A stretch of 64,000 nt of DNA from Acidobacteriota bacterium (GTDB taxonomy: Bacteria > Acidobacteriota > UBA890 > WLXD01), in assembly GCA_963666055.2 (NCBI GenBank), contig CAXWPH010000015.1, forward strand, positions 1,088,001-1,152,000, written 5' to 3'. The number at the start of each line of letters is the position of its first letter. The first letter of the stretch is position 1. A model generated the notes under the pieces. It was not told the DNA's origin. It saw only the letters and a program-made list of their open reading frames with translations, and searched no databases. Below are positions 23,419-25,899 of this stretch, one piece after another. The position numbers and the translations under genes are program-made.

Positions 23419-24150
23419 GTGGCGAAAACCGAAGAGGAGGCAGTTGGCCGGCGGAAGTTTCTGAAGGGCGCGGCTGCAGCCACCGCTTCGATTGTCGGAC
23501 AAGGACGGGTCGTGGGCGCACAGCAACCCCCTGCAGACGATCATGAGCACCAGACCGTGCCTTCGGATATCGCGCTGCGGGTCAGGGCGCTGGAATCGGT
23601 GCTGGTCGAGAAGGAGATGGTCGACCCCGCGGAGCTCGATGCGCTGATCGATGTCTACGAAAACAAGATCGGTCCCCGCAACGGCGCTCGGGTCGTGGCG
23701 CGTGCCTGGGTCGATCCCGCTTACAAGGCGCGCTTGTTAGCCGACGCCACCGAGGCGATCGCAGAGTTGGGGTATGGCGGTGATGAAGGCGACCACATGG
23801 TGGTGGTCGAGAACGAGCCGAAGGTCCACAACTTGGTGGTGTGCACGCTCTGTTCCTGCTATCCGTGGCCAACGCTTGGCCTCCCACCGGTGTGGTACAA
23901 GTCCGCGGGGTACCGCGCGCAAGCGGTGATCGATCCGCGCGGGGTTCTTCGCGAGTTCGATCTCGAGCTCGCCGCCGACGTCGACGTGCGCGTGTGGGAT
24001 AGCACGGCCGACATTCGCTACCTCGTGTTGCCGGAGCGGCCGGCCGGCACGGCGAACATGACCGAGGAGCAACTCGCTGAGATCGTCACGCGCGACTCGA
24101 TGATCGGCGTCGCAAAGGTCGCGTCGGCGCAAGCGGGAGGCGGCGCGTGA
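23419..24150 (+). CDS. nthA: Cobalt-type nitrile hydratase alpha subunit with Tat-like N-terminal leader
   Basis: VCTLCSCY metal motif (Thr/Tyr pattern = Co-type); [28 protein letters not shown] before GTG; leader [12 protein letters not shown]. Confidence 0.95.
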
Positions 24151-24782
24151 ACAGCATCCACGACATGGGTGGGATGGCCGGCATGGGGCCCATCGAGCCG
24201 GAGCCTGACGAGCCCGTGTTTCACCAGGCCTGGGAACGCCGGGTTTTCGCGCTCTCCATGACAATCTCCCTCGGGAGGAGCTTCAGGTTCGAGCTCGAAA
24301 ATATCCCGGCGGCCGACTATTTGCGCATGTCGTATTACGAGCGCTGGTTCACGATACTTGTCAACGGGGTGCTCAGGAACAACCTCGCTACACCCGCCGA
24401 GCTCGAGAGCGGTGAGGCCGACCCGAACCTGCCGCGGCCGGCACCACCGCTGGCGTCGACAGGTGCGTCGCCTGAGTCCGAGCGGCCGGGTGTTCCGGTG
24501 AGCCCGCTGTTCCGTCCGCAGCAGCGCGTGCGCGCCCGCAACATACACGCGCGCGGTCATATACGGCTACCGCGCTACACACGCGGCAAGCGCGGAACCG
24601 TGATCCGGGACCATGGCATCTTCGCCCTGCAGGACACCGCCGAGGATGGACAGAGGCTCGGTGACCGCCCGCAGCACGTGTACACGGTGCAGTTCTCAGC
24701 CCGCGAGCTCTGGGGCGACCGGGGCGTGGCGCGCGACACCGTGTATGTCGACTTGTGGGAGGACTACCTTGAGCCGGCCTGA
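24147..24782 (+). CDS. nthB: Nitrile hydratase beta subunit
   Basis: [32 protein letters not shown]...DLWEDYL; overlaps nthA stop. Confidence 0.95.
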
Positions 24783-25149
24783 TCGACTGCTCGACCCCGA
24801 GCGCCTCCAGGCCTTGCCGCCGCTTCCTCGAGACGAGGAAGGACCGGTGTTTGCCGAGCCATGGCAGGCCCAGGCGTTCGCCCTCGCTGTGAAGCTCTCT
24901 GAGCAGGGATATTTCACCTGGAAAGAATGGTCGCAGGCACTCGGCGACGAACTAAGGGCGGCCGCGGCCCGCGGCGAGCCAGACGACGGCTCGCGCTACT
25001 ACCACCACTGGGTGGCCGCCCTCGAGCGGCTTGTCACAGAAAAGGGCTTGACGGATTCACCGACGCTCCTGGAGCGGAAGGAGGCCTGGACTGACGCCTA
25101 CCGCCACACGCCTCACGGAGAGCCGGTGGCGCTCCGTCAGTCGGATTGA
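24769..25149 (+). CDS. Nitrile hydratase accessory/activator protein (P14K-like)
   Basis: TTG start after GGAGGA; PVFAEPWQAQAFALAV, FTWKEW, YYHHWVAALE, TPHGEPV. Confidence 0.9.
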   Translation: MSRPDRLLDPERLQALPPLPRDEEGPVFAEPWQAQAFALAVKLSEQGYFTWKEWSQALGDELRAAAARGEPDDGSRYYHHWVAALERLVTEKGLTDSPTLLERKEAWTDAYRHTPHGEPVALRQSD

Positions 25150-25245
25150 AGCACCTCATGCGCCTTCCGGCGCGAGGGGACTCGTCTTGTGCGTGAGCGA
25201 TCGGTCCAGCGTCTAGCAGACGAGGTCGAGAGGGGAGGACAAAGC

Positions 25246-25899
25246 ATGGGTTTTCGCCAACGTACTTGGTTTGGGCGAACCGCTGTGGCGCGCAAAGTCT
25301 TCGCCACGCTCACGGTCGTGCTCTTGTGTCACCCACACGAAGCCATGGCGCATCACATGATCGGTGGTGCGGTGCCCCGTAGCGTTCTCGGAGGATTCTT
25401 CTCCGGTCTTGCCCATCCGGTCATCGGCCCTGACCATCTCGCGTTCATCCTCGCGGTCGGGATCATCGCGGCGGCTTTCGCGGAAGGAGGCGTCTTTCCG
25501 GTCGTTTTCTTGAGCACCTCCCTGGCAGGCTGTGTGCTTCGCCTGACGGGAGTCAGCGTCGTGGGCGGCGAGGTCGCGGTCGCAGTTACGGTGGTGGCCG
25601 CAGGCGTGTTCCTGGCCGTGGACAGGAAGATTCGCCGGTCGCGGCTCCTGGTCGGCTTGGCGCTCGCCGGAGCCTTTCATGGCTACGCCTATGGCGAATC
25701 GATGGTGGGAGCGGAGCCTACGCCCATCGTCGGCTATTTGCTCGGACTCGCGGTGATCCAGTATGCCGTGGCGATGGGGGCATTCGCAGTTGCACGGCGA
25801 TTCGACGATCGAGCTTTGGCGGGGCGAGACGTGACGATGCGGGCGGCGGGGATCACGGTAGGAATGATCGGAGTGGTCGCATTCGCCCTGGCTCTCTAG
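25246..25899 (+). CDS. HupE/UreJ family Ni/Co permease
   Basis: AHH...GLAHPVIGPDHL and FHGYAYG motifs; multiple TM helices; follows the NHase genes. Confidence 0.9.
   Translation: MGFRQRTWFGRTAVARKVFATLTVVLLCHPHEAMAHHMIGGAVPRSVLGGFFSGLAHPVIGPDHLAFILAVGIIAAAFAEGGVFPVVFLSTSLAGCVLRLTGVSVVGGEVAVAVTVVAAGVFLAVDRKIRRSRLLVGLALAGAFHGYAYGESMVGAEPTPIVGYLLGLAVIQYAVAMGAFAVARRFDDRALAGRDVTMRAAGITVGMIGVVAFALAL

Follow-up and report, generated by a model that had tools for sequence, protein, structure and literature searches.

The operon discussed here encodes a cobalt (Co)-type nitrile hydratase and lies in a 64,000-nt stretch of DNA, called the window below, from an Acidobacteriota bacterium (GTDB UBA890; WLXD01). 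The window covers positions 1,088,001-1,152,000 of the forward strand of contig CAXWPH010000015.1 in assembly GCA_963666055.2. At 23419-25899 on its plus strand, four co-directional and closely packed genes encode the alpha subunit (nthA), the beta subunit (nthB), an accessory protein, and a permease of the HupE/UreJ family. Nitrile hydratases are industrial workhorses and textbook cytoplasmic metalloenzymes. This operon is otherwise ordinary, and what sets it apart is the start of its alpha subunit, which has the makings of a twin-arginine translocation (Tat) signal peptide. Judging from the genes, maturation probably takes place in the cytoplasm, after which the Tat system would export the folded enzyme to the periplasm, the beta subunit likely being carried along. 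The novelty lies in targeting; the catalytic unit is an ordinary member of the Co type.

To briefly describe the genes, nthA (23419..24150, plus strand) begins at a GTG codon 8 nt downstream of a Shine-Dalgarno sequence, GAGGAG (23405..23410, plus strand, read from the sequence), and encodes an alpha precursor of 243 aa. The protein matches Pfam NHase_alpha over residues 50-232 (8e-88) and passes the nitrile hydratase alpha equivalog TIGR01323 with 298.1 bits against a curated cut-off of 249.85; the closest solved chain is 3qxe_A (8.2e-90). The metal-binding motif VCTLCSC, at residues 141-147 (23839..23859, plus strand), is invariant in alignment A1, and we take the threonine in its second position to mark the Co type, a serine there marking the Fe type. 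The nthB gene (24147..24782, plus strand; 211 aa) also starts with GTG, which overlaps the nthA stop in the sequence GTGA. Its product scores 181.2 bits against TIGR03888 (cut-off, 152.2), carries the Pfam domains NHase_beta_N and NHase_beta_C, starts MNSIHDMGG, and aligns end to end, residues 1-211, with residues 1-219 of the solved beta chain 3qxe_B (1.2e-46). There is thus no leader on beta. The original prediction had described the GAGGAG ribosome-binding site, the N-terminally extended nthA with its VCTLCSC core, and the leaderless nthB, and each is present as described.

The accessory (activator) protein (24769..25149, plus strand; 126 aa) scores 96.1 bits against TIGR03889 (cut-off, 46) and has no signal peptide. 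Its start was chosen from the sequence: the most likely codon is TTG 24769, with GGGAGGA at 24757-24763 (5 nt upstream), and not the ATG at 24613 of the longer open reading frame (ORF), so that the gene overlaps the end of nthB by 14 nt. The HupE/UreJ-family metal permease (25246..25899, plus strand) is 217 aa long from ATG 25246, the most likely start (GGAGGA lies 6 nt upstream), not the GTG at 25189 of the longest ORF. It matches Pfam HupE_UreJ (PF04955) with 108.3 bits against a gathering score of 23 (4.2e-31) and has no match in NCBIfam at E values up to 0.01. Within the operon, its likely role is cobalt import. These profile matches confirm the downstream activator and permease genes of the earlier description, and, again as described there, there is no adjacent amidase-signature gene. 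The own genome contains a single NHase_alpha match, making this its sole nitrile hydratase. Thiocyanate hydrolase was considered as an identity and rejected, with a TIGR03887 score of 177.8 bits below the cut-off of 291.45 and two subunit genes here, not three. Rfam at gathering thresholds gave no match over the whole window, and a scan of 22800-26200 returned no promoter-like and two terminator-like sites, no more than in shuffled sequence.

What does the N-terminal extension of NthA look like? Residues 1-34 (23419..23520, plus strand) form the predicted Tat signal peptide, which is laid out as a 10-residue n-region, the motif RRKFLK, a 13-residue uncharged, Ala-rich h-region, and a c-region RVVGA followed by QQ. 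The twin-arginine motif (23449-23466, plus strand) reads GRRKFLK with the preceding residue, residues 10-16, so that G replaces the S/T of the consensus (S/T)-R-R-x-F-L-K; this G is the commonest residue at that position in the family (100/116). Cleavage is predicted after A34, at a small-x-small site (V-G-A, then QQ) that was read by eye. The next 12 residues (23521..23556, plus strand) would form the acidic, His-containing N terminus of the predicted mature alpha subunit and match the His-rich N termini of leaderless relatives (MPAHDHDHHHDHQ). Compared with Sec signals, Tat signals typically have a less hydrophobic h-region, and their c-region commonly contains a basic residue, here R30.

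Several comparisons place this leader outside the enzyme fold. The Pfam domain starts at residue 50 and the alignments with 3qz5_A and 3qxe_A at residue 41, which leaves about 40 extra residues. An AlphaFold2 model built on 60 relatives has a predicted local distance difference test score (pLDDT) below 50 at residues 1-44 and a confident fold thereafter, the model being informative only on the disorder of residues 1-44. The N terminus of 3qxe_A is 15 residues longer than that of 3qz5_A, and yet the protein crystallized; we read these extra residues as a tag, and if they are, an N-terminal extension is tolerated in assembly.

The leader also resembles known Tat signals. Against NCBIfam TIGR01409 (cut-off, 16.7), it scores 19.4 bits in the whole protein and 21.1 bits in the N-terminal 81 aa. 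Scanning the own genome (5.7 Mb) in six frames with the same profile, as an internal control, gives 84 matches, 50 of them above the cut-off; the leader stands 7th in this list with 22.6 bits (C15:1111446-1111499, equivalent to window 23446-23499). Being conserved, as described below, and standing so high in its own genome, the leader is more than a chance match. For the Tat translocase, the genome matches TatC (PF00902) over the cut-off at five places and TatA_B_E (PF02416) at four. One TatC gene (G000:C14:129035-129665) matches the profile in two pieces in different frames (profile positions 2-157 and 156-208), which suggests a frameshift or an assembly error; the copy on C11 is whole. Tat-type N termini occur elsewhere in the window as well. 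Paralogous NAD(P)-binding Rossmann proteins of about 640-690 aa, encoded at 623-2890 (plus strand), at 11199-13220 (minus strand), and at about 25 places genome-wide, share near-identical ones (..DRDLGMxRxI[ST]RRDF[VL]NG..), several of them over the TIGR01409 cut-off.

The original prediction had proposed a check that the twin-arginine motif is kept in the closest NthA homologues, and it is. Among the 120 nearest proteins (68-100% identical, drawn from a collection of 5.8 billion proteins), 116 have RRx[F..][LIVMF] at the same place. Two of the other four are leaderless (P0006 and P0117) and two are single-residue variants (P0073 and P0074). In alignment A1, conservation reaches at least 90% at R11, R12, and F14, while the other leader positions vary, with in-frame insertions and deletions. 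In four other genomes of the same genus, the orthologue aligns from residue 1 in every case, at 77-92% identity. A wider set of 80 species-representative loci, mostly metagenome-assembled genomes labelled Acidobacteriota (Vicinamibacteria, Bryobacterales, and Terriglobia), has an in-frame leader at 54. TIGR01409 is passed by 34 of 52 of these related leaders versus none of 24 leaderless N termini, four loci without a usable start being left out. More distant alpha subunits with an RR leader also exist, such as P0153 (49% identity), P0230, and P0261. In a 50%-identity representative library, in which many entries are fragments or over-long gene calls, a regular expression flagged 11 proteins, four of them in read-through sequence without an h-region; by reading, 7 of 150 bear a leader (P0121, P0134, P0150, P0153, P0156, P0230, and P0261).

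The leader is under purifying selection and evolves as a protein. The rate of nonsynonymous change (pN) is below that of synonymous change (pS) in all 34 equal-length leader pairs of at least 60% identity, pairs that are not independent of one another. The window leader compared with its four orthologues gives pN below pS four times out of four, with pN/pS of about 0.3-0.4; for the mature alpha domain, the ratio is about 0.2 (two of the four orthologues, L104 and L008).

Not all close relatives carry the leader, and the way in which it comes and goes is instructive. A quick maximum-likelihood tree, built from 81 mature alpha domains with 6 outgroups, interleaves leader-bearing and leaderless forms and needs 13 leader changes, or 12 after two label corrections. 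Shuffled labels need a mean of 20.9, and none of 500 shuffles needed as few as observed. At least three changes are forced by branches with at least 95% support in the Shimodaira-Hasegawa-like approximate likelihood ratio test (SH-aLRT). Because the backbone is poorly resolved, the root and the general direction of change are not settled, but the DNA of single loci shows the direction in individual cases. The whole signal has been cleanly deleted from L048 relative to its sister, L063. L067 retains a decayed remnant (..DRTRFLAAGAAAAQNMA) upstream of a new ATG start, at about 5900-5990, and two further leaders have decayed in frame (L024, with RS for RR, and L042, with RG..LL). At L058 (about 5900-6000), an intact Tat leader is split from the enzyme by one extra base, either an assembly error or a pseudogene, and L083 has an unread base. 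A pattern search found no trace of a leader at 21 loci. What is new here is the repeated deletion or decay of the leader within a close family, which makes location look like an evolvable trait under varying selection.

Across the 80 loci, beta lies 3' of alpha in 78 and the accessory gene follows in 72, most of the misses being at contig ends. At 44 of the 53 leader-bearing loci with a beta match, beta aligns from its residue 1 and starts no more than 30 nt from the alpha stop; the other nine matches are partial or have larger gaps. No leader-bearing locus has an RR motif upstream of beta. The subunits also contain few cysteines. The mature alpha domain has only the three catalytic ones in 52 of 55 leader-bearing rows and in all 26 leaderless ones, and beta has none at 40 of 43 leader-bearing and 18 of 22 leaderless loci, leaving few free thiols for mis-oxidation in the periplasm. 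As a mark of periplasmic adaptation, cysteine content was nonetheless set aside as uninformative, being the same in both forms.

Little else accompanies the operon. The HupE/UreJ gene follows it at 4 of 80 loci (L008, L021, L030, and L058) and occupies the same position in three orthologous operons that were fetched (G002, G004, and G012). All-against-all clustering of the ORFs at the 80 loci found nothing beyond alpha, beta, and the accessory gene in more than 11 loci, and an amidase lies within 6 kb of the operon at only three of the 80. The neighbours of the operon in the window, encoding a sulfatase, a metallo-beta-lactamase-fold protein, and a DUF3179 protein, are not conserved across loci. 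The DUF3179 gene is itself split (28414-29088 and 29110-29436, minus strand, 21 nt apart, with profile positions 2-61 and 74-292) and may be a pseudogene or a sequencing error. On either side of the region, at 20342-22978 and 29726-32362 on the plus strand, lies a gene for an 878-aa Ser/Thr protein kinase with PD40 beta-propeller repeats, and similar kinase genes adjoin the nitrile hydratase operon in some relatives, e.g., L008 and L025. In one clade, the operon has BatA/VWA-type genes on one side and, on the other, a convergent urease cluster (UreD, UreG-like, UreF, and urease alpha), as in L076 (298-5727 and 7729-12619) and at eight leader-bearing loci, including L026, L053, L061, and L069; these flanks may be coincidental synteny among close relatives. 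One same-genus genome (G002) has a second, leaderless nitrile hydratase of another subfamily, in the order beta-alpha-accessory. Such second, leaderless enzymes (L103, at G002:C7:199500-204000, as well as L105, L106, and L108) have a long, His-rich alpha N terminus.

Several observations weigh against Tat export of this enzyme. The leader scores 17.9 bits against the Pfam TAT_signal family (PF10518), below the gathering score of 22.7; one relative, P0106, has a precomputed PF10518 label. At 13 uncharged residues, the h-region is short, and its hydrophobicity is weak, the best Kyte-Doolittle mean over 12 residues being 0.99. This value is near the bottom of the family (median, 1.25; range, 0.92-1.82) and just under a filter of 1.0 that 67 other RRxF candidates of the own genome passed. 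The original prediction had itself cautioned that the h-region was only weakly hydrophobic, and this caveat is partly right: the h-region is the weak point, though by its TIGR01409 score the leader is one of the genome's better Tat signals. The cleavage site, V-G-A, is not a strict A-x-A, and A-x-A followed by Q/E/H/D occurs in only 59 of 116 family leaders. Below the TIGR01409 cut-off fall 18 of the 52 related leaders, mostly short ones of the Bryobacterales type. Close relatives function without a leader, and catalysis thus does not depend on export. Nearby genes include neither a dedicated Tat proofreading chaperone nor a conserved periplasmic partner. Finally, we infer export, cleavage, and co-export of beta from the genes.

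Could the leader be something other than an export signal? One thought is that it never exports and instead serves as a handle that a chaperone or the accessory protein grips in the cytoplasm while cobalt is loaded, the enzyme remaining there. There is a precedent in Escherichia coli NarG, whose vestigial twin-arginine N terminus acts with NarJ. The weak h-region, the Pfam score, and the lack of a periplasmic partner gene would all fit such a role, as would the leaderless sister enzymes, which show that the catalytic unit is independent of export. Yet the leader has the full tripartite layout, with an uncharged h-region and a conserved small-x-small site before Q, all of which would be superfluous in a binding handle. 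It also scores among the genome's best Tat signals, and its losses involve the n-h-c unit as a whole, by deletion or by joint decay. A non-exporting handle is therefore unlikely.

A second thought accepts Tat translocation but leaves the signal uncut, so that the enzyme would be tethered by its N terminus to the outer face of the inner membrane, much as Rieske proteins are Tat exported and keep an uncut N-terminal tether. The imperfect cleavage site would suit this arrangement, and the c-region of some relatives, e.g., L109, has no obvious site at all. However, a stable anchor would be expected to be longer and less polar than an uncharged stretch of just 13 residues that includes Gly, Ser, Thr, and Gln, and many family members have a small residue at -1 with Q after it, which makes a permanent tether improbable. 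More improbable still is the export of alpha only, or of alpha with the accessory protein, while beta stays behind, in which case the periplasmic product would not be a classical alpha-beta enzyme. Beta does lack a signal, but nthA and nthB are translationally coupled through their GTGA overlap and their counterparts are adjacent at 78 of 80 loci, and tight alpha-beta association in all solved enzymes is established knowledge. As for the possibility that the leader is never translated, with the true start at one of the in-frame GTG codons at residues 32 and 47 (V32 and V47) and the upstream frame open by chance, it is close to refuted, since a strong Shine-Dalgarno sequence precedes GTG 23419 and neither internal GTG, the leader matches a signal profile, and purifying selection and the 116/120 conservation, despite insertions and deletions that always keep the frame, dispose of it. 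The original prediction had named such a downstream GTG start as grounds for abandoning the Tat assignment, and none of its refuting conditions that sequence analysis can address held.

Tat export of the folded alpha-beta enzyme thus remains the probable account, and it can be laid out as a series of steps. HupE/UreJ would import Co2+. In Co-type enzymes, maturation proceeds by self-subunit swapping, in which the accessory protein loads cobalt, cysteines are oxidized, and the holo alpha subunit pairs with beta. Here too, alpha would receive cobalt from the accessory protein, oxidation of its two active-site cysteines would take place in the cytoplasm, and the resulting holo alpha would pair with beta. 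The predicted center, as expected of the family, is a low-spin Co(III) with Cys-sulfinic and Cys-sulfenic ligands, and the predicted reaction is nitrile hydration. With no signal on the accessory protein or on beta, maturation must take place in the cytoplasm, and beta could leave only as a passenger. TatBC would then recognize the GRRKFLK motif in the flexible extension of alpha and move the folded complex across the membrane, and signal peptidase I would cut after V-G-A, giving a mature alpha that starts at Q35. Why Tat? It is the sole plausible route for bringing a completed metal center, together with a partner that has no signal, through the membrane. A non-corrin cobalt center needs a cytoplasmic helper, and a bare cobalt site folding in the periplasm would risk taking up the wrong metal.

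Once exported, the enzyme would turn small nitriles into amides by hydration, from which predicted exported amidases could release ammonia in the periplasm. In the own genome, 7 of 12 amidase-signature genes and all three FmdA/AmdA-like genes have signal-like N termini by eye, two of them with RR motifs (MRRRDFL, in an amidase-signature gene, and MFDRRYFV). These signal-like genes include G000:C15:586086-587429 (minus strand), C2:130648-131547 (plus strand), and eight other places. A periplasmic route from nitrile to amide to ammonia is thus possible, though nothing links the amidase genes to the operon. A broader and distinctly tentative speculation is that many Acidobacteriota run periplasmic nitrile-to-ammonia scavenging, in which a Tat-exported Co(III) nitrile hydratase with its passenger beta feeds exported amidases and the compartment is switched by gain, deletion, or decay of a 30- to 40-residue leader while the enzyme itself stays the same. 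If such a scavenging route were real, toxic or scarce organic nitriles would be converted outside the cytoplasm.

Is there any sign of expression? Three metatranscriptome runs and one other run were compared with the window, and their contigs cannot show a 5' end. A single RNA contig lies on the operon over its whole length (232 bases, X20 record 6, at 24129-24360, with 5 mismatches). The other pieces are conserved matches of 27-50 bases from other organisms and one 241-base piece on hupE with 13 mismatches. No RNA in the metatranscriptome runs covers the leader region, and these data are uninformative on expression or start site. Contigs of up to 2.3 kb in runs X20-X22 share only stretches of 27-50 bases with nthA (window 23588-24052), so other organisms' nitrile hydratases are present in these libraries. 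As to habitat, runs labelled marine or seawater metagenome contain 20-40% of the window's sampled words; the runs with the largest shares have coded labels.

If the enzyme is exported, abundant, uncultured soil and marine bacteria would turn over nitriles outside the cytoplasm, which would alter models of detoxification and nitrogen scavenging. The leaders would also be ready-made tools for secreting active nitrile hydratase in biocatalysis. Close relatives with and without a leader amount to a natural experiment on the costs and benefits of each location. A search of the full-text literature found no exported or Tat-dependent nitrile hydratase, although subscription journals fell mostly outside that search, and absence in print is not proven by it. 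In passages from PMC6852473, PMC11928666, PMC11672702, PMC5744179, and PMC3462710, the Tat terms refer to other proteins.

How does the window enzyme compare with systems already described? The nearest known is the Co-type nitrile hydratase of structures 3QXE and 3QZ5, which presumably comes from Pseudomonas putida NRRL-18668, whose activator is P14K. The two share the VCTLCSC motif, the order alpha-beta-accessory, and a His-rich start of the mature alpha subunit. They differ in that the solved enzyme has no signal peptide, whereas NthA carries about 34 residues of predicted Tat signal before its His-rich start, and in that the window operon adds the HupE/UreJ permease. Also close are the leaderless Acidobacteriota sisters (e.g., L034, L065, and L080), which resemble the window enzyme in operon and cysteine content and are 66-79% identical to it in the mature alpha domain. 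Unlike NthA, they start directly at MxxHDHDH..., without an RR leader. Thiocyanate hydrolase is a member of the same superfamily with the same metal site, and its gamma subunit is homologous to the nitrile hydratase alpha subunit.

In targeting, the closest parallels are Tat hitch-hikers such as E. coli hydrogenase-2, in which HybO carries HybC, the DMSO reductase DmsAB, and PaoABC. Like the window enzyme, these complexes have one subunit with a twin-arginine signal and a partner without, and their cofactors are inserted in the cytoplasm by dedicated helpers. Unlike it, they are redox enzymes with Fe-S, Mo, or NiFe centers and usually have a proofreading chaperone that binds the signal, while the window enzyme has a hydrolytic-type, non-corrin cobalt center and no such gene in sight; its co-export is, in contrast to theirs, a prediction from genes. 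If exported, it would bring a non-redox, non-corrin cobalt enzyme onto the short list of hitch-hiker complexes. The other instructive parallel is MncA of Synechocystis, an Mn-cupin that folds and binds its metal in the cytoplasm before Tat export. MncA has an unrelated fold and a single subunit and undergoes no post-translational cysteine oxidation, unlike nitrile hydratase, but the logic is shared: a metal low in the Irving-Williams series is bound safely inside the cytoplasm before the protein is exported in its folded state. An exported nitrile hydratase would allow a clean test of the proposal that export by Tat guards weakly binding metals against mis-metallation.

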